From Candidatus Hydrothermarchaeota archaeon (lineage in GTDB: Archaea > Hydrothermarchaeota > Hydrothermarchaeia > Hydrothermarchaeales > BMS3B): a stretch of DNA of 64,000 bases. Each line of letters opens with the position of its first letter. Within the stretch, counting starts at the first letter, position 1. A program made the position numbers and the translations under genes. The stretch lies in NCBI GenBank assembly GCA_015521615.1, contig WANW01000051.1, positions 7,918 through 71,917 on the forward strand. The letters run 5' to 3'. Positions 11,384 through 42,211 of the stretch are shown here, one piece after another. The notes beneath the pieces were generated by a model that saw nothing but the letters and a program-made list of their open reading frames with translations, searched no databases and was not told the DNA's origin.

Positions 11384-12520
11384 ATGCTTAAGCGAGAGGA
11401 AATTCAGAAAATCGCCGCAGATTATGGCAAGGATATAACCATAGGAATTTTCGGCTCTCACTCCGCCAAGGAGATAGGCGCTGCCGCAAAGATGGCCGGT
11501 TTTCGCACAGCAATAGTGGTGCAGAAGGGCAGGGACAAGCTTTATACTGTATACAACCGCCACCTCTACGACGAGATAATAACTGTAGAGAAATTCAAGG
11601 ACATGCTCAATGAAGAGGTGCAGGAGCGCCTTCGCGAGCTGAACACCATCTTTATTCCCAACCGCTCTTTTGCAGTTTACGTGGGATACGACGGTATCGA
11701 GCGCGAGTTTCGTGTACCAATATACGGTAACCGCTTTATGCTGCGCGCAGAAGAGCGCGAGTATGAGCGGGGGCAGTACTACCTTCTTAAAAAGGCCGGG
11801 ATAAGAACGCCGAAACATTTTGAGAAGCCGGAGGATATAGACCGCCTATGCATAGTTAAGGTGCAGCAGGCCGCAAACCCCCTCGAGAGAGCCTTCTTCT
11901 ACGCCGACTCCCCGGAGGACTTTTACAAACAGGCAGAGGAACTTCTGAAGCAGGGAATAATAAGCGAGGAGACGCTGAGCAGGGCGAGAATAGAGGAGTA
12001 TGTGCTTGGTGCACGCTTCAACGCCAACTTCCATGGTTATGCGTTAGAGGATATCTTTGGCGATTTTGACCTGGTAGGCTTCTCGGACAGAAGACAGGTC
12101 AATCTGCAGGGATTCCTCAACCTTCCGGCAAAAGACCAGCTGAAGATCCGCGTGCCAGTGACAAATGAAGAGATTGGACACTTCGGTGTAACCATGCGGG
12201 AGAGCAAGCAACACCTTGTTTACGACGCAGCCTACCGCTTCCGCAGGGTGGTCGAGGAGGAGTACCCGCCGAAGATGATAGGCCCCTTTGCGCTTCAGGG
12301 GGCAATAGCATACTCACCCGAGGACAATAAAACACTGGAGTTTGTGGTCTTTGATGTCTCTCCTCGGGTGCCCGGAGACCCAGCAATGGGACCCACATCG
12401 CCGGAGATGCGCAACCTGAGCATAAAGTACGGCAGGCGAATAGAAGACCCGCTTGACCTGGCCATGATGGAAATTGGAGAAGCAATAAAGCTCGATAGAC
12501 TGGAAGAAATCGTGACGTAG
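11384..12520 (+). CDS. purP: 5-formaminoimidazole-4-carboxamide ribonucleotide synthetase (PurP)
   Basis: 378 aa. A GSHSAKEI N-terminal motif is followed by an ATP-grasp fold. Confidence 0.8.
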   Translation: MLKREEIQKIAADYGKDITIGIFGSHSAKEIGAAAKMAGFRTAIVVQKGRDKLYTVYNRHLYDEIITVEKFKDMLNEEVQERLRELNTIFIPNRSFAVYVGYDGIEREFRVPIYGNRFMLRAEEREYERGQYYLLKKAGIRTPKHFEKPEDIDRLCIVKVQQAANPLERAFFYADSPEDFYKQAEELLKQGIISEETLSRARIEEYVLGARFNANFHGYALEDIFGDFDLVGFSDRRQVNLQGFLNLPAKDQLKIRVPVTNEEIGHFGVTMRESKQHLVYDAAYRFRRVVEEEYPPKMIGPFALQGAIAYSPEDNKTLEFVVFDVSPRVPGDPAMGPTSPEMRNLSIKYGRRIEDPLDLAMMEIGEAIKLDRLEEIVT

Positions 12521-12528
12521 GTGAGGGC

Positions 12529-13614
12529 ATGCTTGAAAGAGAGGATATTCTGGAAATCTACAGGGGCTATGACAGGAGCAATATCGCTATAGCCACGCTG
12601 GGCAGCCACTCAGCGCTCCAGATTCTGAAAGGGGCGAAGGAGGAAGGCTTCAGGACAGTTGTGGTCTGCAAGCGAGACAGGGCAGAGCTATATCGCCGCT
12701 TTCGCGTAGCTGATGAAATAATAATCCTAGATAGTTATTCGGAGACGATCGCTGAGAAGACTCTGGAGAAGCTCAGAAAGCTCAACGCCCTCCTTGTGCC
12801 CCACGGTTCACTAATAGCATATGTAGGCGTGAGAAACATAGAGGAAAAGCTTCGCATACCTCTCCTTGGCAATCGCCACATACTGCGATGGGAGGCGGAC
12901 CGCAACCTTGAGAGGCAGTGGCTCACCAGAGCGGGAATAAAGATGCCAAAGGAGACAAAGGACCCCCACGATATAGACCGTCTCAGCCTGGTCAAGTTTC
13001 CTGGTGCTCGTGGCGGGAGAGGCTACTTCATAGTCGCAAGCTACAAGGACTTTAAACGCAAGGCAGAACGCCTGATACGCAAGGGAAGGATTACCCGCGA
13101 AGACCTGGAGAAGGCAACAATTCAGGAGTACATACCAGGGGTAAACATGTACCTCTCGTACTTTTACTCACCTCTCACAGATGAGGTGGAGCTGTTCGGC
13201 ATAGACCGCAGGTACGAGGCTAACATCGATGGTCTGACAAGGATACCGGCGATAGACCAGACAGAGACATATATTGAACCAAGCTATGTCGTTGTAGGCA
13301 ATGCCCCTCTCGTTGCGAGGGAATCTCTCCTGCCCAGGGTGCTTGAGATGGGCGACCGCCTGGTGGAGGTCTCCAGGGAGATAGCCCCGCCCGGAATGCT
13401 CGGCCCCTTCTGCCTTGAGACCATGGTCACTCATAACCTGGAATTCATAGCCTTTGAGATTTCAGCGCGAATCGTCGCTGGAACCAACCCCTTCATATCG
13501 GGCTCGCCCTACAGCTATCTTCTGTACGGAGATAACATGAGCATGGGCCGCAGAATTGCGAGAGAGCTGCGCCTTGCTCTAGAGCAGGAGAGGGAGGAGC
13601 TCCTCATAACATGA
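12529..13614 (+). CDS. purP: PurP paralog (FAICAR synthetase-like ATP-grasp)
   Basis: 361 aa. It carries a GSHSALQI motif and sits in tandem with the preceding gene. Confidence 0.8.
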   Translation: MLEREDILEIYRGYDRSNIAIATLGSHSALQILKGAKEEGFRTVVVCKRDRAELYRRFRVADEIIILDSYSETIAEKTLEKLRKLNALLVPHGSLIAYVGVRNIEEKLRIPLLGNRHILRWEADRNLERQWLTRAGIKMPKETKDPHDIDRLSLVKFPGARGGRGYFIVASYKDFKRKAERLIRKGRITREDLEKATIQEYIPGVNMYLSYFYSPLTDEVELFGIDRRYEANIDGLTRIPAIDQTETYIEPSYVVVGNAPLVARESLLPRVLEMGDRLVEVSREIAPPGMLGPFCLETMVTHNLEFIAFEISARIVAGTNPFISGSPYSYLLYGDNMSMGRRIARELRLALEQEREELLIT

Positions 13615-22649: not shown

Positions 22650-23771
22650 TCAGTCCAGAAAATCTATTCCAAGCTTTGTTTTCAGGTCTTCCTTTTCCTC
22701 CTCGACAAAACCTTCCTCTGAGCCCAGGATCTGCTTTGAGCGCACGCCTGTTACCACGAGCATAACCCTGAGCACGCCCTTCAGGTCGTCCTCTATCTGC
22801 GCGCCCCAGATGATGTTGGCTCTGGGATCAAGGCGCTCTGACACCACCTGCACCACCTGCTGCGCCTCTGCAAGGGTTAAATCTTCGCCGCCGACGACAT
22901 TTATCAGCGCGCCCTTCGCACCGGTTATATCCACATTGAGCAGTGGGCTGTTAATTGCCTTTTCTATCGCCTCCACGGCTCTGTTTTCGGTGTCGCTTTC
23001 ACCCATGCCTATCATCGCCACACCGCCGCCCTCCATTACAGCGCGCACGTCCGCGAAGTCCAGGTTTATCAGCCCTGGCTTTGTTATCAGCTCGGCAATG
23101 CCCTTGACAGCGCGCACCAGAATCTCGTCCGCCACCTTAAAGGCTGCCGGCAGAGGGAGGTTGGGCGCTATTTCAAGAAGCTTGTCATTGGGGATTACTA
23201 TTACAGTGTCGGTCTCCCTGCGCAGCTTCTCCAGCCCCATCTCGGCATTGCTCCGCCTGCGCATGCCCTCCATGGCGAAGGGGAAGGTGACTATAGCCAC
23301 TGTCAGCGCCCCAAGCTTCTGGGATATGTTGGCAATCACCGGTGCACTTCCCGTACCCGTGCCACCTCCAAGGCCGCAGGTGATGAACACGATGTCTGCG
23401 CCCTCCAGAACCTCCTTGATCTCCTGCTCACTCTCCTTTGCCGCCTCCTCACCAATCTGGGGCACTGACCCGGCGCCCAGGCCACCGGTCAGCTCCTTTC
23501 CTATGAGCAGCTTCCTGTGCGCCATCGTGTTGAGCAGGTCCTGTGCATCAGTATTTATTGCTACAGTCTCTGCCCCCTCTATGCCAACTTCCATCAGGCG
23601 AGTCATGGTATTGTTTCCTGCGCCCCCTGTACCCACAACCACAATCCTCGCCTTGGTCTGTGATAGTATGTTCTGTAACTCCTCGTCTATCCCGGTTCTT
23701 CCTGTGACAGACGTATTTTTATGAGAAACTTCACCAGCCCTCTTTATGGCTTCCTCAATGATGCTGTCCAA
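22650..23771 (-). CDS. ftsZ: Cell division GTPase FtsZ
   Basis: [10 protein letters not shown] and GGGTGTG tubulin signatures are present. Confidence 0.95.
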
Positions 23772-23800: not shown

Positions 23801-25069
23801 CTACCGCCGGTATTTAAACGTTTTCCTTAGCACTCCAAGGGTGCGCTGCTCTGCTATGGGTATGCGTATTTTCCTCCTGGAAAGCACCATCTCTGGCGTT
23901 ATTGTCTGTTCACCTACAACCACGCTCTCCCCCCTGCTGAGCTTCGCATACTCCGGACCTGGCCTGAGTCCGAGCTTCGCCGCCTTGGCCGGGTCGAAGG
24001 CTTTGTAGGTGAGCACAAGCTCATTACCATTAAAGGAAAGCTCACCCCTGGAAGAGAGGATATCCACACATGCCTTAACAACCTCCTCGCCTGCGTCACG
24101 CTCTGAAAGCAGCCTCTTTATCCTGCCACTCACATCACGCTCCACCACTATGCCCAGCGAGCTGAACACCTGCTTCACCCGCTTTGAGTTGAGCTTTTCC
24201 GCAGCCCTCACCAGCTCCAGGTCCACCCACAGGGGCGTTAACGCAGAGCTCTGCGCCTGGAGCTCGCGCCTCCGCTTCACAGGCACGCCAAGCTCCTCCG
24301 CCAGAGCGAGAGCCTTCTCCCTTTCCTCCCGCTTCATTCCCTTCCAGTCCAGGTAGACGAAGCCGGCGCCGCTCTTCTCCACCGCCTGTGCAAAGACCTC
24401 TAACGTGAGCTGAGCTATCGCGTAGCTTGGAATTATGTGCCCCACAGCGTACTGCGTCTCCTGGGCAAGCTCAGTGTGCCTCGGAGCGTAGTGCGTACCC
24501 CCTACGCCTACGCATGCCTCGTAGCTCTCCTTGCACAGCGCCGCCTCCAGCGCGGCTTTTGCAACGGCACGCACCGCCTGCAGGTCGCGCCACTCTTTCT
24601 CGGTGGAGCCGACCTCCACGAAGAGCACCGGCTTCAAAAGCTGCGTTGGTCCGTGGTGCGTCGCCTCAAAGGAAACCTCATAGTCCAGGTTGAGCTCCCG
24701 CCTCGCGCGCTCCAGAGCGAGAAGCGCAACCTTCATTGCACTGGGATGAGCATACGCAAGCGTCTCGGGTGAGCCTCCAACCTTAGCCTCCCTGCCAAGG
24801 TTGCCGGTGACGTGCACAGTAAGCGTTCTGCGCTCCGCCTGAGCTTTGTGCCTGGTTGCAAACACGTAGTACTCGGCTTTTGGGAAATGCTCGTCCAGGT
24901 GCTCCGCTTCAGTCTGCCTCCGCTCCGTAGCTATGGCGACAACCTCGCCCCTCTTCAGCAGGGGCATGCCCTCAAACTCTCCAGCTTCCGCGAACCCCAG
25001 CTCCTCTCTGAGCACGCGGAAGATGTTCCTGCCTGCGATGTCCTCCTGTGAGGTGACGATTACTCGCAC
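23801..25069 (-). CDS. dtdA: D-aminoacyl-tRNA deacylase (archaeal DtdA family) with an extended C-terminal region
   Basis: 422 aa. The N-terminus ([16 protein letters not shown]...) is DtdA-like. A C-terminal stretch of about 150 aa has no domain I can name. Confidence 0.6.
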
Positions 25070-25644
25070 AGCCTAGCCACCACCTCTTCCAGCTCTCTCA
25101 GGTCGTGAAGCACAAAGTCAGCCCTGCTCAGGTACTCCTTTGAAAACCTGCCGTCGAGCAGCGCTATTCTAACTCCTGCGCTTCTCGCAGCGAGGTAGTC
25201 GAAAGCGTGGTCGCCAACGGCGAGGGCTTGCTCCGGAGCTGCCCCGAGCAGCTTCAGGGCGAGCTGGAACTGTGCCGGTGAGGGTTTTGGCTCCGCATCT
25301 TCCCGGGTTACCACGACATCAAAGGCGAGGGAAAAGCGCTCCGCCACCACCTCCCAGGCCTGCCTGCAGTTCCTCGTGGCGAGAGCGAGGGCAATTCCGC
25401 GGGAGCGCAGGCTTTGAAGCACCTCCCTGGCGCAGGACTTAAGCTCCGCCCGCCTGGCGGCGCTAACCTCGTGCTCCACCACCCTTGCGAGGGCTTCCTC
25501 CCTCTCCCTGGAGGGCAGCGCCTCTATCATCTCCAGCAGGGGCTGCTCCGCATCGAAGCCGAAGATTTCCATTTTGATTCGTGCAATGTCCAGGTTGAAG
25601 TCCACCAGCGTACCATCGAGGTCGAAGATAACCGCGCGGAGCAT
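25060..25644 (-). CDS. HAD-superfamily hydrolase (phosphoglycolate phosphatase-like)
   Basis: Motif I is VIFDLDGTLVD. Confidence 0.8.
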   Translation of the reverse strand: MLRAVIFDLDGTLVDFNLDIARIKMEIFGFDAEQPLLEMIEALPSREREEALARVVEHEVSAARRAELKSCAREVLQSLRSRGIALALATRNCRQAWEVVAERFSLAFDVVVTREDAEPKPSPAQFQLALKLLGAAPEQALAVGDHAFDYLAARSAGVRIALLDGRFSKEYLSRADFVLHDLRELEEVVARLCE

Positions 25645-25703
25645 GTGCTAAGGGTAAGGGTTAACCTAAGCAAATTCCGCAATCAGAGAAGGACATATTA
25701 AGC

Positions 25704-26933
25704 ATGAGGAAACTACTCTGGCACATGGGTGAGAGGCGAGCGCTGCTTGCAAGCTTTCTCGTGGTATTTATTGCAAGCGTGGCCTTCTACCTGATTAAGC
25801 CCGCGCTGGCGCTCAGACTTAGAGCCGAGCTCGGTGCCACGGCCCTTGAGGTCACCGCCCTTACCTCCGGCTTTATGGTGGCGCGCGCCCTGGCAGCGCC
25901 CCTCACCGGCTTTGCCGGCGACAGGGCGCCTCTGCTCAGGGGCAGGATTGCCAGGCTGTGCCTCCTTCCCGTGGCCCTGCTCAGCGCCGCCTACGCCTTT
26001 GTGCCCGAGGCTCTTCTTGCGGTGCTTCTGAGCGCTGTGCACGGCTTCTTCTCCGGCATGTTCTGGCCCACTCTCCAGGTTATTGTTGGCTTCTCGGCGC
26101 CTGAAGATAAGAGGGGAGCCTACCTGGGCGCCTACTTCACCCTCGGCGCCCTCGGCTCAAGCATCGGCTACGCCCTCTACGGGTTGCTGCCCCTGAGCAG
26201 CACTTTTCTCATACTTGCAGGCGCAGCACTGTATGCGCTCTCCGCAGTGCTCGCCCTGCTTCTGTTTTCCGCCTCCTGCACCCCTGCGATGCCTGCTGAG
26301 CAGAAGAAGGAGGTAAAGCTCCAGCTGAGCAGCCTTCCGCCCCTTGCGATTTGGGTTCTGGTGATTTCCTTCGCCATCGGCGGAGTTATGGGGCTGATGA
26401 ACGAGTACCTCTACCTCTTCCTCTACGAGGTGCACGGCATGACGAGGGCTGAGCTGGGGTATGTGCTCACCGCTGCAGCCCTTCTGAGTGTTTTCAGCGG
26501 CATCTTTTCGGGTTTTCTTTCGGACAGGCTTGGGATTCGCAGAGTCCTAGTTGCAATTCTGCTGCTGTGTTCCTTGGGTCTTCTCTCCCTTACGCTCTCG
26601 CCTGGAAGGCTGATTGTTGCCCTTTCCCTCGCCACAGTGCTACTGGCAGTCAAGGCGACGCTGCCCCTTACGCGAAACATCGCCGTGGCGGGAGGCTCCG
26701 GGCTTGCGGGCACAGTGGTTGGCCTTGCGAACACCTTCTCCAGCGCAGGTGCGGCTGCGCTTCCGCTGGTGGCGGGGTACCTCTACGACGCTCTCGAGGG
26801 AGAGGTGGTGCTCGGAATAGACGGCCGTGCAGTTCCTCTCATTCTGTCTTCGCTCGCGGTGCTTTTCCTTGCTCTTATTTCGCCTCTGGCGGGAGGGAGG
26901 AGACGCGGTGAGAGACCTATTCCTCCGGATTAA
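25704..26933 (+). CDS. MFS transporter
   Basis: 409 aa with 12 TM-like segments and MFS loop motifs. Confidence 0.8.
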   Translation: MRKLLWHMGERRALLASFLVVFIASVAFYLIKPALALRLRAELGATALEVTALTSGFMVARALAAPLTGFAGDRAPLLRGRIARLCLLPVALLSAAYAFVPEALLAVLLSAVHGFFSGMFWPTLQVIVGFSAPEDKRGAYLGAYFTLGALGSSIGYALYGLLPLSSTFLILAGAALYALSAVLALLLFSASCTPAMPAEQKKEVKLQLSSLPPLAIWVLVISFAIGGVMGLMNEYLYLFLYEVHGMTRAELGYVLTAAALLSVFSGIFSGFLSDRLGIRRVLVAILLLCSLGLLSLTLSPGRLIVALSLATVLLAVKATLPLTRNIAVAGGSGLAGTVVGLANTFSSAGAAALPLVAGYLYDALEGEVVLGIDGRAVPLILSSLAVLFLALISPLAGGRRRGERPIPPD

Positions 26934-27046
26934 AGGTATTTAATCCCTCAGCTTTAGCTGCTCTCAGCAGATTTTCGTCATAGCAGATAAATTCATTTAC
27001 CTCAGGCGTCCATGTAAGGGCGGTATAGAGATGTATCCCCCATATC

Positions 27047-27061
27047 GTGTACATTGTACAC
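27047..27061. promoter_or_regulatory. Perfect 7-1-7 palindrome GTGTACAtTGTACAC about 35 nt upstream of the RHH gene, a putative operator
   Basis: Read directly from the sequence. A TATA-like AAATATAAAGG lies between the palindrome and the ATG. Confidence 0.4.
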
Positions 27062-27098
27062 CAACAAATATAAAGGTTTCGCCTAAACACAATAAAAG

Positions 27099-27260
27099 AT
27101 GGCTAAGATTTACATAGCGACCAGAATTGAAAAGAAAGAGTATGATAAGATTGAAAAGCTAGTTAAAGAAACTAAATTGAAGCGAGCGGAGATAGCCAGG
27201 AGGTTGATTCTTATCGGTCTAAAACATGTCAAAAAGCCGGAGGACCTGATTAAAATTTAG
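27099..27260 (+). CDS. Ribbon-helix-helix (CopG/Arc-like) small DNA-binding protein, 53 aa. It is not in the ORF track.
   Basis: Translation is MAKIYIATRIEKKEYDKIEKLVKETKLKRAEIARRLILIGLKHVKKPEDLIKI. The beta-strand plus two-helix pattern fits the RHH fold. It lies in an AT-rich islet of about 35% GC. Confidence 0.45.
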   Translation: MAKIYIATRIEKKEYDKIEKLVKETKLKRAEIARRLILIGLKHVKKPEDLIKI

Positions 27261-27310
27261 CGTAATTTTTCAGATGTTGCTCTATATTTACGATTACCTT
27301 TAATTGTCTT

Positions 27311-28408
27311 CTACAACTCCCACCTCTTAAAAACCCTCAGCTTGAAGCAGGAGAGGCGAGGCTTTCGCATGCCCTTATACTGCACCAGCACTTTGAAAAT
27401 CTCGCCCATGCTTCCCGGCATGAGCAGCCTCTTCAGCGGGAGGAGTGTCCGAAGGTAGGCCTCCTCGCCCTTCTCCTCCCTTATCCTCATCATCTCCTCC
27501 TCCAAGCCCAGGCTGAGCAGGAAGCTCGCCAGGTCGGTGAAGCCGGCGACTTCGAGCCCGAGCTTTCTCCCGAAGTGCGCCAGGGCGGAGAAGTTCACAT
27601 GCGAGGTAATGTCCTGCTCGCCTATGTTCACGTAGGGGCTCTCCACAACGCGGTGGCGGTGGTAGCACAGCAGCGTACCCGCGCTGCGGTAGCTCGCGTA
27701 GAGTTCCTTGCTCGGGTAGCCGTAGTCTATTGTAAGCAGGAAGCCGCGCTTCAGCACCTGCGAAACTTCGCCGAGCCAGCGCAGCGCCTCCAGGTTAACC
27801 TCTGTGCGGAAGCCCTCCTCGAGCTCCACGCCGAGCTCGCGGAAGTATCTCCTGAGCTCCTCCCCCGCCAGGAGAAGCACCTCCCTGAATTCACCTTCCC
27901 TCAGGGTAACGTACACCTCCCTGAGCTCGCCCTCCCGCATCTCCACCACGTGCACCGGGAAGGCGTCCACCAGCTCATTGGAGAAGATGCACCCCTCTAT
28001 CTCGCCCAGCTCTCCTAGCGACTCCACAACCTCCACCCTCCCGCCAAGTGCCGAGCGCTGCCTTCGCCTCATGCTGGGGGAGCGCTCCACTATAACGTAG
28101 CGCACCTCTCCACCAAGTGAGGAGAGCACATCCCCGGCGAGCAGTCCTGTGCCCGCGCCCATCTCCACCAGGGTAAACCTCTCGCTCGCGAGAAGGCGGC
28201 GCATCTCCTCAAACTGCCTCGCAAGCATGGCGCCGAAGAGGGGCGAGACGTTGCTGGCTGTGAAGTAGTCGCCCCGCTTTCCTATCCTCTCCCGCGCAGA
28301 GCAGTAGTAGCCATAGCGCTCGTGGTACAGCGCAAGCTCCATAAAGTCCCTGAAGGGTATCGCTCCCCGCCTCTTAATCTCCTCCACTACAACCTCACGC
28401 GCACTCAT
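27311..28408 (-). CDS. MidA/NDUFAF7-family (DUF185) SAM-dependent methyltransferase
   Basis: MidA motifs FRDFMELALYHERYGYY and GAGTG are present. Confidence 0.65.
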   Translation of the reverse strand: MSAREVVVEEIKRRGAIPFRDFMELALYHERYGYYCSARERIGKRGDYFTASNVSPLFGAMLARQFEEMRRLLASERFTLVEMGAGTGLLAGDVLSSLGGEVRYVIVERSPSMRRRQRSALGGRVEVVESLGELGEIEGCIFSNELVDAFPVHVVEMREGELREVYVTLREGEFREVLLLAGEELRRYFRELGVELEEGFRTEVNLEALRWLGEVSQVLKRGFLLTIDYGYPSKELYASYRSAGTLLCYHRHRVVESPYVNIGEQDITSHVNFSALAHFGRKLGLEVAGFTDLASFLLSLGLEEEMMRIREEKGEEAYLRTLLPLKRLLMPGSMGEIFKVLVQYKGMRKPRLSCFKLRVFKRWEL

Positions 28409-36791: not shown

Positions 36792-37445
36792 CTATTTCAG
36801 GATTACTATGTTGCCCCTGCCCTTTTTTATCTTTTTGATTTTGCCTCTGTGCTCCAGGTCAGTCAGCATCAGGCTGAGCTTTGCTTCAGAGCATCCGAGC
36901 CTCTTCCGCAACTCACTCTGCTTTACCCTTCCTCCTTCCTTTCTTATAATCTCCAGCACCTGGACAAGGTCCTCAGGCAGCGGCTCCGGTTCTTCCTCCT
37001 TTCTCCTCCGTTTCAGATAAAGATAGCCTGCAAAAATTGCCAAAATAATGAAAACGACGATGAGCATAAACAGATAACTGTTACTTTGCTTCCCCTCTTC
37101 GAGGATGCTCACATCGATATCATCAAAGAGAAGTTCCTCCTCGAGAGTCGGAAAGAGTATCAGATCTATTCTGTAGCTACCATTCTGGGGAACCTCAAGC
37201 TCTTCCTCAGTCTCAAGCTTCAGAAGATTGTTCTCGTAATACCTTGCCTTCAGCAGATAGCTTCCCCCAGGTACAGAAAATGAGTAGCTTCCATCTCTTG
37301 ATACAAGTACTTGCTCTGGCGTGGTATTTATCTCCACAACCACCCCGCTGAGGGGCTCAAGGGTTTCCCAGTTGTAGAGGTTACCATAAATTTGAGCTGC
37401 ATAAGTTAATGGCATGCTAAGGAGCAGAAGCAGCAATACTCTCAT
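36792..37445 (-). CDS. Membrane-tethered transcription regulator: signal peptide, extracellular beta-sandwich (carboxypeptidase-regulatory-like), TM helix, cytoplasmic winged helix
   Basis: The signal peptide is MRVLLLLLLSMPLTYAA. The TM helix is LFMLIVVFIILAIFAGYLYL. The C-terminal wHTH is LEIIRKEGGRVKQSELRKRLGCSEAKLSLMLTDLEHRGKI. Confidence 0.55.
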   Translation of the reverse strand: MRVLLLLLLSMPLTYAAQIYGNLYNWETLEPLSGVVVEINTTPEQVLVSRDGSYSFSVPGGSYLLKARYYENNLLKLETEEELEVPQNGSYRIDLILFPTLEEELLFDDIDVSILEEGKQSNSYLFMLIVVFIILAIFAGYLYLKRRRKEEEPEPLPEDLVQVLEIIRKEGGRVKQSELRKRLGCSEAKLSLMLTDLEHRGKIKKIKKGRGNIVILK

Positions 37446-37589
37446 ATGGGATTAGTAACTCCTCTCTCAATTAAATAATTTTCTATGAAGTAAAATAAAT
37501 AAAAAATTTGGCTCATAAACCGAAATAAAGTATCATAAAGCTTTAAATTTTCTGAGTCAAAAGTAAGCTTATATCAATCAAGCGCCGAG

Positions 37590-38786
37590 GTGTTGGCGGA
37601 GGTGATGAAAATGAAGGCGGCAAAAGTGCTCTCAATTGCCCTGGCGGCGATGCTTGTGCTCAGCCTGCTCCCGGCGGGCTATGCGCAGCCGCCTATGAAA
37701 AAGGTAGAAGAGAGGTATAAGGTTGCAAAGGCAAACTACCTCAAGGCACTCGAGGTCTACAAGAGCGCCAGACAGGACTACCTGAAAATGAGGGAGATGG
37801 CAAAGCGAGAGCCGGTGCCCTTTGAGAAGGCAAAGAACTTCCTGCTGCGCAGCATTGACGCGATGATAGCGCACCTCGAGATGGTCAAGGCGAGGGTGGA
37901 TATTACCCGCAGCCTTAGCGAAGAGGAGAAGGCAGAAATCACAGAAACTCTGGATAGCTACATATCCTGGCTGGAAGAGAAAAGACAGGAAGCAGAGCAG
38001 GCAGAGAACAGGGAGGAACTCATCGATATAGCAAAAGAGGTCAGGAAGGAGTGGGCAGAAGCCAGAGTAGAGATCAAGAAAATAACTGGGAAAATCATCA
38101 TATCAAAGATAGATTATGTGCTTGAGAAGGGAGAAGAGATAGGGGACAGACTCGAGGCGAGGATTGAGGCTCTTAAGGAGGAGGGCTACAGCACCCAGGA
38201 GCTCGAAGCCCTTCTGGCTGACTACAGAGAACACCTCAGCTTAGCCAAGGAAAAGAGGGACATGGCCAAGGAGAAGTTTGAGGAGATCTCCTCGGTGGAA
38301 GACGCCCGTATACTCTTCAGAGAAGGCAATGCCTTCGTTAGAGAGGCAAACAAGCACATACGCGAGATGTTCAAGGACCTTAGGCAGATTATAAGAGAGG
38401 TAAAGAGAGGAGAAGCAGAGATCAGAGGGATAGGCTTTCTCTATGCGAAGGGCAACGGCAGCGCAGTGATACAGGGCAATGGTAGCATTTTTGTGAAAGG
38501 AGAGGGCAACCTCACCGTAAAGGTGGTCAATGGAACAGTCCGTGTGGCTGGTGAGGGAGAGAAGCAGGAGAACAGCGATGGCAGCATAACATACATCGGC
38601 TTTGGACGGGCGAGAATTTCAGGCAAAGACCTGTATGTGAGCGTCGAGGGTACAAACCTTGAAATCAGGGCTAGGGGTGCTGGAAAAGCGACACTTACCG
38701 GAGAAGGCTTCTACCGCACGGTAAAGGGCGAGGAGGAGTGGAACGCAGAAGAAGTGGCCTACGGAGGTGCTCAGAATGAGAGCTAG
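37590..38786 (+). CDS. Secreted coiled-coil protein with a C-terminal beta-rich Gly-repeat domain
   Basis: A signal peptide (…LLPAGYAQ) is followed by about 250 aa of Glu/Lys/Arg-rich helical sequence. The C-terminus has Gly repeats (GNGSAVIQGNGSIFVKGEGNLTVKV...). Confidence 0.5.
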   Translation: MLAEVMKMKAAKVLSIALAAMLVLSLLPAGYAQPPMKKVEERYKVAKANYLKALEVYKSARQDYLKMREMAKREPVPFEKAKNFLLRSIDAMIAHLEMVKARVDITRSLSEEEKAEITETLDSYISWLEEKRQEAEQAENREELIDIAKEVRKEWAEARVEIKKITGKIIISKIDYVLEKGEEIGDRLEARIEALKEEGYSTQELEALLADYREHLSLAKEKRDMAKEKFEEISSVEDARILFREGNAFVREANKHIREMFKDLRQIIREVKRGEAEIRGIGFLYAKGNGSAVIQGNGSIFVKGEGNLTVKVVNGTVRVAGEGEKQENSDGSITYIGFGRARISGKDLYVSVEGTNLEIRARGAGKATLTGEGFYRTVKGEEEWNAEEVAYGGAQNES

Positions 38787-39024
38787 GCTGGCTCTGCTGG
38801 GCATCCTCCTGCTGGGACTCCTCCTTCCTGGATGTACATCTAAACCAGAGCAGAAGGCGAGCACTGCCGTGGCACCTGCACCGGAGAAGGTAGAAACAGC
38901 AGCACCTGAGCCGGTGATTGGCGACGATGATGCAGAAATCGATGCCCTCATACAGGAGGTACAGGAGCTGGAGGATTTTCTAAGCGACGTGGAGAGCGGT
39001 GAGATGCTGGACACCGGCATCTAA
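38767..39024 (+). CDS. Small acidic lipoprotein
   Basis: The lipobox is LLLPGC. It overlaps the preceding gene by 20 nt. Confidence 0.45.
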   Translation: MLRMRARLALLGILLLGLLLPGCTSKPEQKASTAVAPAPEKVETAAPEPVIGDDDAEIDALIQEVQELEDFLSDVESGEMLDTGI

Positions 39025-39039
39025 TTTCTCTTTTTTATT

Positions 39040-39801
39040 TTACAAAAAGGTTACAGAACACTTTACCTTCGCAGACATACCTAATTTTGCTGCTATTTCT
39101 TCAGCAATCATTACACAGGTATCATTAAGTTCATTTCTCAACAATTCTTCAAAGTTTTTATCCTTTGTACCTATTACACCCTTGGAGTACTTTACAACCG
39201 CAATTACAATAAACTCAAGCACCTGACCATCTATATTTGGAACAACCCTGATGCTCAATCTTTTTACCCTCTGGTTCCGATTAAGCCTGCTTCTAAGCTT
39301 ATCCCTGAACTCCCTGGCTATGTCAGTTGTATTTCTTTCATGAACGAGATATTCTGTAACAATAAAGTTCAGAAGACCGTCGAGTGGTTCTTCTTTATAG
39401 GATGTATCTTCAACTTCTGGAAGAGGTGGCTGGACAGTTTTCTGGTGGTGCTGGAGAGTTATATTTCCAACGATCTTGCGAAGATACATATTAAGAAGGG
39501 GTATGTTGGGCTTCTTGTTGAACTCCATATAGACTATACTGTCTCCAAAGAGCTTAACATAGCTCGCTCCATTTGCCCCCTCAATCAGGATCTCTTCAAG
39601 ATTTCCCAAGTCAAAAAGTATTGATAGCTTGAAGGCAAGTCCCTCCCCGTCCTGAATGCCACACGCAGCAATTTCACCATCTCTGGATAGAAGAGCACAG
39701 CCCTTTATATATTTAAAGCTTTTCTTTAGCTTTTCAAGGTGACCTGCAACATCTGCCTTCTCATCAGCTTTACCTTCAGCTACTTCCAGATGCATCTGCA
39801 C
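39040..39801 (-). CDS. Roadblock/LC7-domain protein with a roughly 140-aa C-terminal extension of unknown function
   Basis: The N-terminal Robl pattern is KGCALLSRDGEIAACG...GASYVKLFGDSIVY. Local GC is about 40%. Confidence 0.55.
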   Translation of the reverse strand: MQMHLEVAEGKADEKADVAGHLEKLKKSFKYIKGCALLSRDGEIAACGIQDGEGLAFKLSILFDLGNLEEILIEGANGASYVKLFGDSIVYMEFNKKPNIPLLNMYLRKIVGNITLQHHQKTVQPPLPEVEDTSYKEEPLDGLLNFIVTEYLVHERNTTDIAREFRDKLRSRLNRNQRVKRLSIRVVPNIDGQVLEFIVIAVVKYSKGVIGTKDKNFEELLRNELNDTCVMIAEEIAAKLGMSAKVKCSVTFL

Positions 39802-39820
39802 ACCCGCCAGTATCTAAAAA

Positions 39821-40147
39821 TCATATTGAAACTCCTGAGATTATATCGGCAACATCGGAAAGCATCACAGCCTCCGGAGTATTTTTGTCGAAGAATACCA
39901 CCAGCTCTGCCTCCTCATGCCTCACCACCACTGCTTTGCAGTCAGAGAACCTCAGTTTTGCTGTCGTGTACTCTTCACATAGCTCGCTGATCAGAGCTAC
40001 AGGTATGACTGCCATCTCCTTCAGGTCCTGCTTTTCCTCTGCACCAATAATCTCCCCATCTTTAATAACATAGCAGGATATCACATTTTCCAGTTCGGCT
40101 ATGTCACTCGCCAGCTTATGTGCTATAATATCCTCCAACTTCATCAC
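39821..40147 (-). CDS. Roadblock/LC7 (MglB-like) domain protein
   Basis: 108 aa. The VISCYVIKDGEIIGAEE...AELVVFFDKN pattern is present. Confidence 0.55.
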   Translation of the reverse strand: MMKLEDIIAHKLASDIAELENVISCYVIKDGEIIGAEEKQDLKEMAVIPVALISELCEEYTTAKLRFSDCKAVVVRHEEAELVVFFDKNTPEAVMLSDVADIISGVSI

Positions 40148-40682
40148 CGAAGGCGTGCTGTATTATCATATCTATCTCCTCTTCCGTCGGCTCCTTAAGC
40201 TTAAGCCTCTTAAGCACCTCCTCCCTGGTCACTGAAGCCTCTTCTCTGAGAACACGGTAGATGTCCAGAATTGCCCTGCTCTCCTTCAGTAGCTGGTTGT
40301 AGTTACCATTGCAGTAAACAAGATTGCCATTCCTGTAAACAATATAGACTCTCTTCAACCTCTTGGAAAAGGCCCCGACCACCACATGCGAATGGCTCTG
40401 AGCTATTTTTTCAAGGTCTTCCTTCACACTGTTGCTAATCCTAGTTTCAATTTTGTTCACAGAGTATTCAATGTTGTCAAGCTTAATCCTCTTCTGAGCG
40501 CTGTAAAGAGCAATCACCATCTCCTTCTTATGTTCGGGCGGATCACCTCTCGTTGCAACAATTTTCCTCCCCTGGACTATAATCATCGACTTTCCATCGG
40601 TGGCCTTTACCAGATATTTCTCAGAAAGATTTAACAGATCTTCTATATCCACCCCCGCTTTATACACTTTTACCGGCTTCAT
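40116..40682 (-). CDS. Hypothetical protein, possibly a divergent Roadblock-like N-terminal domain. First gene of the low-GC operon.
   Basis: 188 aa with no P-loop. ATDGKSMIIVQGRKIVATRGD resembles the Robl beta-hairpin. Confidence 0.35.
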   Translation of the reverse strand: MKPVKVYKAGVDIEDLLNLSEKYLVKATDGKSMIIVQGRKIVATRGDPPEHKKEMVIALYSAQKRIKLDNIEYSVNKIETRISNSVKEDLEKIAQSHSHVVVGAFSKRLKRVYIVYRNGNLVYCNGNYNQLLKESRAILDIYRVLREEASVTREEVLKRLKLKEPTEEEIDMIIQHAFGDEVGGYYST

Positions 40683-40764
40683 AGCCCGCCCCGCTGAATT
40701 TCAATTTGGTTTTTCTAATTATGTCAATTTTTATTATATAAATTTAACGCTCTTGTTTATTTAC

Positions 40765-40784
40765 AATGGACAAAATTGTCCATT
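40765..40784. promoter_or_regulatory. Inverted repeat AATGGACA-aaat-TGTCCATT in the promoter of the Roadblock operon
   Basis: Perfect 8-bp arms, read directly. It lies 83 nt upstream of the first ORF start at 40682, in AT-rich DNA. Confidence 0.4.
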
Positions 40785-40834
40785 ATTATAAAAGTAAAAA
40801 ATTATAAAGTAGAATTTAATAAAATTAAGATTGT

Positions 40835-41311
40835 TCATTTCATTATAACAGTCGCCCAGTTACGGGCAACTGCAAGGATATTGCTGGGAGAATTGTCCAC
40901 AATCTCTCTCACTGTGCTCCCGGTTATTTCAGGATGTCTGGAGTTTATCCCCAGAACAAGAAGGTCCACATCCTCCTCCTTTGCGGTCTTTACTATTTCC
41001 TCAGCTGGCAGGCCAACTCTTATAATCTCCTTTGCATTAACACCACTGTTTTTAAGGCAGAGTTTTGCCGCCTCAATTGCCCTCTTCCCTCTGTCATCCA
41101 GCAGATTTTTTATGTCCTTCCCCTCCTCAAGAAGGGACTCTATAGTACCCTTGAACTGAGCCTCCCCGAGGAGGTCATGGTGAAAGATATCACCAATATT
41201 TGCCACATAAATATACTGAAGCTCTGCATCAAATTTCCTGGCCAGTTTTACCCCAGTAAGTAACGCTTTGATTGATACATTACTCCCATCAAAAGCAACA
41301 AGCACCCTCAT
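40835..41311 (-). CDS. Universal stress protein (UspA family)
   Basis: The sequence pattern VLVAFDGS...DLLVLG...GSTVREIV is present. Confidence 0.8.
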   Translation of the reverse strand: MRVLVAFDGSNVSIKALLTGVKLARKFDAELQYIYVANIGDIFHHDLLGEAQFKGTIESLLEEGKDIKNLLDDRGKRAIEAAKLCLKNSGVNAKEIIRVGLPAEEIVKTAKEEDVDLLVLGINSRHPEITGSTVREIVDNSPSNILAVARNWATVIMK

Positions 41312-41434
41312 AACATTGTTAACTTATAACATTCTATATTTATATCTTTCGAATTACCCCCATAAAACACTTACATTATTAACAAAAACTTTTATATATT
41401 TACTACAAAAAATGGTAGTGGCGGAGGAGACTTT

Positions 41435-42211
41435 ATGGGGGTCTCTATTACGATAGCCTCTGGAAAGGGCGGCGTTGGGAAAACAATGCTTACCAGCAAC
41501 CTTGGCATTGCTCTGGCTCAGTTCGGTAAGAATGTAACAATTCTCGATGCTGATTTACAGATGGCGAATCTGGAACTTCATCTCGGGATGGAGGGGATGG
41601 AAATCACCCTTCAGGATGTACTCGCCGGAAAGGCAGAGATATCTCATGCAATATACCGTGGACCCGGCGGAATAAATGTGGTTCCAGCAGGAATAAGTCT
41701 GGATGGTCTCAGGGAAGTGGATATGAATATACTGGAGAAGGTGCTCGGGAAGCTTCTTGAGGAGACAGAGATACTGCTTATAGATGCCCCAGCAGGTCTC
41801 GGTAAGGCTGCGGTTACTGCTCTCGCATCAGGGGAGCACCTTCTGCTGGTCGCAAATCCCGAAATCTCATCCCTCTGTGACAGCCTCAAGACCGCAATGG
41901 TTGCCCGGAAACTTGGAACTAAGGTACTTGGTGTTGTTCTGAACCGGATGAGTTTTGAGAAAGGTGCAATGAATGTCAGAGATGTGGAGTTTATCCTCGA
42001 AACAAAGGTGGTTGCCACAGTTCCGGAGGATCCGGAGGTGAGGAGAAGCACAACCTATGGTGAGCCGGTGATGATAAGAAGCCCTCACTCACCGGCAGCA
42101 CAGGCAATAAAAAAGCTGGCTGCAGACCTACTGGGGAGAAGATATGTTGAATCCACTAAAAGAGAGGGTTTCTTCAGACGGTTATTGGATGGGATATTCG
42201 GAAGGGTTTAA
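41435..42211 (+). CDS. MinD/ParA-family deviant Walker-A ATPase
   Basis: The deviant Walker A is [13 protein letters not shown] motif is present. Confidence 0.85.

Follow-up and report, generated by a model that had tools for sequence, protein, structure and literature searches.

The locus studied here raises the question of what three small co-oriented genes do beside a MinD ATPase gene in the genome of a hydrothermal archaeon, and whether MinD is their partner. To our knowledge, archaea lack MinC and MinE and hardly any partners of archaeal MinD have been described; the only partners known to us for Roadblock proteins are small GTPases and dynein. In the window (the whole 64,000-nucleotide stretch of DNA that was analysed), three ORFs on the minus strand were found at the positions given by a preliminary description of the same DNA. 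We named their products, in gene order, A (188 aa; 40116..40682), B (108 aa; 39821..40147, 105-108 aa depending on the choice of start codon) and C (253 aa from the GTG at 39801; 39040..39801). For C, the start at ATG 39795 (251 aa) is more likely, being favoured by public gene calls and by a GGCGGG motif. The genes had been described as an overlapping three-gene operon; they are indeed co-oriented, and A and B overlap by 29-32 nt, but B and C do not overlap and are separated by a gap of 19-25 nt. Directly upstream of A-B-C lies the expected universal stress protein (Usp) gene (40835..41311, minus strand; match to Pfam Usp, E 2e-17), and divergent from Usp, on the plus strand, lies the ATPase gene (41435..42211).

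This ATPase, described as a MinD/ParA protein with a deviant Walker A, is by its profile score an archaeal MinD: it reaches 332 bits on TIGR01969 minD_arch (cut-off 201.75), has the deviant Walker A motif GKGGVGKT at residues 10-17, and is closest among solved structures to A. fulgidus MinD-1 (1HYQ, E 1e-84). It ends in a basic/hydrophobic tail of 14 residues. This tail and that of the MinD from a second lineage (group 2 below; TFLERLLKIFVGR) resemble the bacterial MinD membrane-targeting sequence, with a hydrophobic moment not distinct from that of shuffles. The tail may target the membrane, which MinD probably binds. The reported lack of a Ras-like GTPase was also borne out, as no protein combining Walker A with NKxD is encoded across the 64 kb, where Walker A matches are limited to MinD, a CDC48 homologue and two chance motifs. 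Likewise, no small GTPase was found near A-B-C in the annotated flanks of relatives from all three lineages described below.

All three proteins had been called Roadblock-like. The claim held for the N-terminal domain of C, according to its predicted structure, but not for A, which does not have the Roadblock fold. Residues ~15-115 of C are predicted to form a Roadblock/LC7-fold domain with the order alpha-beta-beta-alpha-beta-beta-beta(-alpha), followed by a disordered linker (residues ~116-154) and an alpha-beta-beta-alpha-beta domain (residues ~155-253) like the C-terminal domain of CDF transporters. On the structural model, C is a Roadblock/LC7-fold protein, and its small ferredoxin-like domain probably serves dimerisation. 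Scanned against Pfam and NCBIfam, the three proteins gave no Robl_LC7 match and no other family above threshold. Window C does not match Pfam PF03259 at the gathering score, just one of 15 members of the C family reaches E 0.01 against this model, and no solved Roadblock chain matches C at the sequence level. A paralogue carries the independent JGI label COG2018 Roadblock/MglB. The C family is modular, combining a constant Roadblock domain with three different C-terminal ends, as would be expected of an adaptor. The tail of paralogue C' showed no convincing match to the FtsZ C-terminal peptide or to the MinD tail.

Of the three proteins, B is the best conserved: its sequences from the most distant pair of lineages are 61% identical. 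When 1.84 billion representatives were searched exhaustively with an HMM of B, only its own cluster and a spurious repeat protein (P0049) came back, and none of 10 members of the B family matched Robl_LC7; judged from its sequence, B is an orphan family of ~105 aa. Its secondary-structure pattern, read by eye from the sequence (a-bb-a-bbb-a), is compatible with Roadblock, so that B is possibly Roadblock-like as well. Comparison of B with the Roadblock domain of C was not significant (hhalign probability <4%, mean Smith-Waterman z-score 0.45), and neither profile-profile nor Smith-Waterman comparison gave significant mutual homology of A, B and the N-terminal domain of C. Profile searches of the three families against PDB sequences returned nothing relevant. 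A is beta-rich with a C-terminal helical hairpin, a fold for which no solved relative was found. Members of the A family give repeated, co-linear matches to DUF2226 (PF09987), and some to DUF4388/PATAN (PF14332), all below the curated thresholds: the former reaches 21.7 bits against a gathering score of 22 (7 of 10 members match, all sub-threshold) and the latter 18.4 bits against 25 (2 of 10). A literature search on DUF2226 found no papers.

Upstream of A, the sequence suggests a control region of the operon's own. A candidate archaeal promoter, a BRE-like GTTAAA followed by the TATA box TTTATATA (40735..40748, minus strand), is located ~56 nt upstream of A's ATG, and 16 nt further upstream is the inverted repeat AATGGACA-AAAT-TGTCCATT (40765..40784), which is a perfect 8-4-8 repeat, as had been noted, and the sole match in the window even with 3 mismatches allowed. 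Five Hydrothermarchaeota loci retain the block GTTAA-TTTATATA between Usp and A. Of the repeat, only the outer AATG...CATT positions are conserved in relatives; the inner positions vary without compensation, which argues for a DNA site over an RNA hairpin. An RNA hairpin or terminator was rejected on this ground and because the conserved BRE/TATA follows just downstream. We infer that the BRE/TATA is the promoter of A-B-C and the repeat a transcription factor operator. A membrane-anchored wHTH protein encoded nearby, at 36792-37445, is one candidate for binding the AATG-N12-CATT site.

The low GC content of the region had been taken as a sign of horizontal acquisition. The dip is real: 39040-41311 has a GC content of 42.0%, the lowest of any 2.3-kb stretch of the window and ~3 SD under the mean, and GC3 falls to 0.39 in C from about 0.6 elsewhere; but the background is 51.7% (SD 3.0), not the 55-58% claimed. 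These figures are what one would expect if Roadblock genes had arrived by horizontal transfer on a low-GC island of a mobile or defence kind. Such an origin is nonetheless extremely improbable. The locus is syntenic in at least five Hydrothermarchaeota assemblies, in a housekeeping setting near ribosomal protein, RNA polymerase and enolase genes, and the module lies 4-10 GC points under its flanks in every lineage, whatever the GC content of the genome (30 vs 37, 35 vs 40, 43 vs 53, 50 vs 56 and 57 vs 61%), so that the genes themselves account for the bias. The hallmarks of an island are absent as well: there is no tRNA, integrase or flanking direct repeat, and no plasmid homologues were found, on which grounds a plasmid or mobile origin was rejected, as was a defence-system reading because PADLOC gave no defence matches. 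The A-B-C operon is vertically inherited and lineage-restricted.

We compared the triad among Hydrothermarchaeota including the window (group 1), an unclassified hyperthermophile (group 2) and BMS3B-type Hydrothermarchaeota (group 3). A, B and C have the same order and sizes in these three diverged lineages, and are confined to Hydrothermarchaeota and one other hyperthermophilic archaeal lineage. The adjacency with MinD is conserved in part: an orthologous MinD adjoins A-B-C in two of the three lineages (groups 1 and 2), recurring in a distant second lineage in a different context, but it is absent from group 3, where Usp-A-B-C is surrounded by metabolic genes and the span from -7.6 to +7 kb around it contains no MinD. 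In group 2, a tight 13-gene operon between S10 and reverse gyrase, a context unrelated to the group 1 setting, consists of MinD as the first gene, a 56-aa protein, a coiled-coil protein, four small polytopic proteins, A, B, C'', an ATPase and two T2SSF genes. This ATPase is a double T2SSE (NF058587 FlaI-like and TadA-like; ArlI/TadA-like), and the T2SSF genes are TadC-like; the operon has no pilin genes. The MinD heading it is 60% identical to that of the window. Within group 1, MinD occupies two positions relative to A-B-C, which we rejected as independent evidence of linkage, since a single swap of adjacent blocks explains both and keeps the adjacency trivially. T2SSE and T2SSF/TadC genes share an operon with A-B-C in the group 2 relatives, whereas tblastn found neither T2SSE nor T2SSF genes in the 64-kb window, so that for the window the pilus link rests on homology to another lineage only. 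This pilus-motor connection, visible only in relatives, was absent from the preliminary description.

Tentatively, and with slightly less than even confidence, we read A-B-C as a cytoplasmic module, an adaptor or a regulator, acting together with MinD on type-IV-filament or other membrane machinery. A, B and C would assemble into a cytoplasmic adaptor or regulator complex, and this complex would cooperate with the neighbouring, probably membrane-bound MinD ATPase; MinD and A-B-C would then set the place or time of assembly of a membrane machine. For the window genome, the target would most plausibly be a type-IV-filament (pilus/archaellum-superfamily) motor. The scheme would be analogous to the bacterial MglB/PATAN and FlhG/TadZ systems. 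It retains part of the earlier proposal of a Roadblock module partnered with a ParA/MinD ATPase, as a predicted Roadblock-fold protein is indeed encoded next to a true MinD, in a neighbourhood free of small GTPases, but the link to MinD is not universal. A more specific version, which we consider unlikely as it stands, is that Roadblock-fold C (possibly with B) and PATAN-like A are the missing archaeal MinD partners and, instead of acting on a Ras-like GTPase, would tune the ATP/membrane cycle of this SIMIBI-class ATPase, in the manner of MinE or a TadZ adaptor, to place a type-IV-filament motor. If this were true, the role of the Roadblock superfamily as NTPase regulators would reach a different NTPase class.

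A-B-C might instead be independent of MinD, forming a stress or signalling module with the co-transcribed or adjacent Usp, a stress protein that binds nucleotides, or with an unlinked small GTPase, in which case the MinD adjacency would be inherited synteny of no functional significance. Usp is linked to A-B-C as often as MinD is (two of the three lineages): an orthologous Usp directly precedes the triad in groups 1 and 3 with different flanking genes, and in group 3 the gap is ~40 nt, with no MinD near. The group 1 genomes are also close relatives, and the whole KefB-to-SDH-protease block is common to all of them. Group 2, however, lacks Usp, and its A-B-C shares one tight operon with the orthologous MinD in unrelated surroundings. 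In group 1, A-B-C is preceded by a conserved BRE/TATA that it does not share with Usp. As for an unlinked GTPase, small GTPases are the classical Roadblock partners and are possibly encoded elsewhere (PMC4316618), but in none of the three lineages is one encoded close to A-B-C. We regard independence from MinD as rather unlikely.

The cooperation with MinD could also serve cell division, with MinD and A-B-C positioning or regulating the FtsZ ring and substituting functionally for MinC/MinE, rather than acting on a pilus. The MinD of the window falls in the 'cell division ATPase MinD' family, FtsZ is encoded in the same window (22650-23771), the neighbourhood of the module is of a housekeeping kind, and archaea are not known to have MinC/MinE, so other partners are expected. 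FtsZ is, however, ~17 kb distant, no relative shows it linked to the module, and the one operon whose content is informative contains a type-IV-filament motor and not division genes. In Haloferax, work on MinD4 reportedly indicates that the characterised archaeal MinD paralogues place motility and chemotaxis machinery and not the division site. A division accessory appears quite improbable.

Under the favoured reading, in which A-B-C works with MinD on a membrane machinery, a conserved Roadblock-containing triad that is genetically linked with MinD, as well as with a pilus motor in one lineage, provides candidate partners for archaeal MinD and, if these prove true, a wider range of NTPases would be under Roadblock regulation. 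The families occur only in uncultured hydrothermal archaea, and the case is built on genomics and structure prediction. Neither is the combination new, although it had been thought not to be a described one: the general co-occurrence of Roadblock and FleN/MinD with archaeal pilus loci was pointed out in 2016 (Makarova et al. 2016, PMC4858521).

Several known systems can be compared with the module. The Roadblock heterodimers of eukaryotic, lysosomal Ragulator/LAMTOR, which scaffold Rag GTPases, resemble it at the level of fold only. MglB-MglA of Myxococcus xanthus and its prokaryotic relatives shares with it the link to a pilus motor (here in a relative) and an adjoining NTPase that localises machinery; here, however, there is no Ras-like GTPase and the linked NTPase is a SIMIBI-class MinD, while C, unlike MglB, fails the Pfam Robl_LC7 model and has an extra CDF-CTD-like domain. 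PATAN proteins attach to PilB1/PilC of the pilus motor, and their genes often lie beside those of MglB homologues (10.1101/2021.06.11.447907, PMC4316618). Synechocystis PixG/PixE and M. xanthus SgnC, for example, are small PATAN regulators of the cytoplasm whose targets are the ATPase and the platform proteins of the pilus; A similarly adjoins B and C, as PATAN genes often adjoin MglB, and in group 2 is located three genes upstream of the pilus ATPase, but its similarity to DUF4388/DUF2226 is sub-threshold (18-22 bits) and it is without a REC domain.

FleN/FlhG, TadZ/CpaE and archaeal MinD of arCOG00589 are likewise MinD-type deviant Walker A ATPases encoded in or next to a type-IV-filament locus. 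The arCOG00589 ATPases are predicted to regulate filament assembly or placement (Makarova et al. 2016), and these FleN/MinD proteins, proposed as regulators of pilus loci, are often found beside unrelated cytoplasmic or membrane proteins (PMC4858521). A, B and C bear no relationship to the known partners of these ATPases (FliM/FliY, FlhF and Tad components), and TadZ has a receiver-like N-terminal domain, whereas the MinD of the window is a canonical minD_arch member. Roadblock/LC7 proteins of arCOG02603 are encoded within type IV pilus loci of various kinds in archaea (Makarova et al. 2016, PMC4858521). In the present case, the B and C families escape Robl_LC7, the group 2 ATPase is a tandem double T2SSE fusion in an operon without pilins, and the module of the window stands alone; the group 2 operon, with its two TadC-like genes and MinD, resembles the 'clade 1' layout of Makarova, Koonin and Albers 2016.

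The open reading frames of the minus-strand operon genes A (40116-40682, 188 aa), B (39821-40147, 108 aa) and C (39040-39801, 253 aa), of the universal stress protein gene Usp upstream of them (40835-41311, minus strand) and of a P-loop ATPase on the plus strand (41435-42211) all lie where the preliminary description placed them, and its identification of the last two was borne out. Usp matches its Pfam family (E 2e-17), and the ATPase is a canonical archaeal MinD (TIGR01969, 332 bits versus a cut-off of 202), which contains the motif GKGGVGKT and has A. fulgidus MinD-1 as its closest solved relative (E 1e-84). The operon had been described as overlapping, which is true of A and B (~29 nt) but not of B and C, separated by a gap of 19-25 nt. 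On the minus strand, GGCGGG is found at 39803-39808 and 40684-40691, 2-9 nt upstream of the ATG of A and C, and the G-rich motif directly before the start codon of A is kept in relatives (GAGGCGGG); GGCGGG may be the ribosome-binding site of the operon. Together with public gene calls, it favours ATG 39795 as the more likely start of C.

Alignment of the Usp-A spacer from five loci of group 1 (Hydrothermarchaeota, including the window genome) revealed a conserved block, GTTAA-TTTATATA (40735-40748, ~56 nt upstream of the ATG of A), which looks like a BRE/TATA box and may act as the promoter. The 8-4-8 palindrome located 16 nt upstream of this block (40765-40784) is, as first described, perfect, and it is unique in the window. 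In relatives its outer AATG...CATT is kept and the inner bases vary without compensation, suggesting a putative protein-binding DNA site rather than an RNA hairpin, which we disfavour. A candidate binder comes from a trio of genes conserved beside the module in group 1 (36792-39024): it is a wHTH protein of DUF7343, membrane-anchored and bearing a CarboxypepD_reg-like domain at its N-terminus. The other two genes encode a secreted coiled-coil protein of 398 aa and a protein of 85 aa whose signal peptide is lipobox-like.

An HMM search for Robl_LC7, the family to which all three operon proteins had been likened, gave no match for A, B or C in curated libraries, and no solved structure matched any of them at the sequence level. 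The Roadblock assignment stood for C, whose residues 15-115 are predicted by AlphaFold2 (15-sequence alignment; pLDDT ~80 in folded parts) to form an N-terminal a-bb-a-bbb-a domain of Roadblock fold, but not for A, whose confident model (pLDDT 82) consists mainly of beta structure and a C-terminal helical hairpin. Co-linear matches below the Pfam thresholds connect members of the A family to DUF2226 (7 of 10; 21.7 bits versus a cut-off of 22), CCB2_CCB4 (6 of 10) and DUF4388/PATAN (2 of 10); with sub-threshold matches only, the PATAN likeness of A is putative. For B, nothing beyond its own cluster came up when 1.84 billion representatives were searched exhaustively by HMM, so that it counts as an orphan. 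It does not significantly resemble the Roadblock domain of C; its secondary-structure pattern may, in our own reading, be Roadblock-like. Among 5.8 billion proteins the C, A and B families have 15, 10 and 7 matches, respectively, and a set of 185,579 species-representative genomes yielded only three loci. The three families are new and divergent, none passing any curated model. A solitary C-like gene on a high-GC metagenomic contig (L014:9989-10690) encodes a Roadblock domain and the C-terminal domain of C (35% identity) between a helicase-like gene and one for a cysteine/histidine-rich protein; A, B, Usp and MinD are not nearby.

The relatives of A-B-C fall into three lineages. Group 1 (Candidatus Pyrohabitans and relatives) shares a single syntenic block, in which KhtT and KefB are followed by MinD (with rhomboid in some genomes), Usp and the A-B-C operon, then by two secreted proteins, a membrane wHTH protein and an SDH-type protease; the block adjoins genes encoding ribosomal protein, RNA polymerase and enolase. 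In most genomes of the group the operon has five genes, A-B-C'-A'-C (loci L001:7053-8020, L002:7004-8001 and L008:5024-6004), where A' is a paralogue of A (40% identical) and C' a Roadblock paralogue of 140-149 aa with an acidic disordered linker and a conserved tail, W-x-D-V-x-x-I-F-S-[LM]-R, which resembles a motif for binding a partner or the membrane. In three independent assemblies the operon of the window genome consists of three genes, C' and A' being cleanly missing between 39801 and 39821. Elsewhere in the window, two tandem paralogous genes (11384-13614, plus strand) encode DUF1246 and DUF1297 domain proteins of 378 and 361 aa.

Group 2, an unclassified low-GC hyperthermophile, has a tight 13-gene operon between the genes for ribosomal protein S10 and reverse gyrase (L004:4302-14187; L019:7154-17047). 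Its 5' part encodes MinD, a 56-aa TM protein, a coiled-coil protein and four small paralogous polytopic membrane proteins, and its 3' part A, B, C'' (a Roadblock domain with a C-terminal domain unlike that of C), a FlaI/TadA-like double T2SSE ATPase with two units fused in tandem in one 1107-1113-aa protein, and two T2SSF/TadC-like genes; the operon contains no pilin gene. Identity to the window proteins is 60% for MinD, 61% for B and 49% for A. Group 3 (BMS3Bbin15-type archaea) has the arrangement PurC-Usp-A-B-C-SdhA-SdhB. The adjacency to MinD that had been expected in other genomes is thus conserved in groups 1 and 2 but not in group 3, where no MinD lies within -7.6/+7 kb of A-B-C.

The low GC of the region had been taken as a sign of horizontal acquisition. 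The dip in windowed GC is real, 39040-41311 being the lowest stretch in the window (42.0%), but it was overstated, since the window mean is 51.7% (SD 3.0 for 2.3-kb windows) and the background is not 55-58%. The module is 4-10 points under its flanks in every lineage, whatever the genome GC, its position is identical in all group 1 genomes, and no tRNA, integrase, flanking repeat, plasmid homologue or defence-system match was found at it. The bias is therefore a property of the genes and not evidence of recent transfer, making an acquired island highly improbable. The opposite outlier, at 23801-28408, reaches ~60% GC over D-aminoacyl-tRNA deacylase-like, MFS transporter and Methyltransf_28 genes, with GC3 up to 0.82 at 27311-28408 versus ~0.6 elsewhere.

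A-B-C is a conserved unit with two recurring nucleotide-binding neighbours, MinD (groups 1 and 2) and Usp (groups 1 and 3), and only the operon of group 2, in which MinD and A-B-C stand together with a type-IV-filament motor, points to a cellular process. We tentatively propose that A, B and C assemble into a cytoplasmic adaptor or regulator complex that would cooperate with MinD in acting on a membrane machine, a type-IV-filament motor being the most plausible. In C, the Roadblock domain would serve as the unchanging core for interactions, and the C-terminal ends, which vary, as outputs. Against this proposal stand the lack of motor genes in the 64-kb window and of MinD near A-B-C in group 3, and the two positions that MinD takes within group 1 amount to a single trivial block swap. 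A MinD-independent signalling module linked to Usp or a GTPase would suit group 3, but is rather unlikely: MinD recurs in groups 1 and 2, and the reported absence of a Ras-like GTPase holds for the whole 64 kb. The window also encodes FtsZ (22650-23771, minus strand; Tubulin and FtsZ_C domains, C-terminal peptide LGIDFLD), with which A-B-C and MinD might act at the division site; this seems improbable, as FtsZ lies ~17 kb from MinD and is unlinked to the module in relatives.

The proposed action of A-B-C with MinD on a filament motor fits the literature. Roadblock proteins occur in various archaeal pilus loci, and FleN/MinD ATPases, whose genes often accompany those of unrelated cytoplasmic or membrane proteins, have been proposed to regulate such loci (Makarova et al. 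2016, PMC4858521). In Synechocystis the pilus ATPase and platform are bound by PATAN-domain proteins, whose genes frequently adjoin those of MglB homologues (10.1101/2021.06.11.447907, PMC4316618). The narrow distribution, in uncultured organisms only, limits the proposal, its functional link is inferential, and direct regulation of the SIMIBI-class MinD by Roadblock proteins is doubtful. The combination is not as new as the preliminary description supposed, since co-occurrence of Roadblock and MinD with archaeal pilus loci was noted before; a Roadblock protein whose partner is a MinD-class ATPase rather than a small GTPase would represent a variation on a known regulatory theme.
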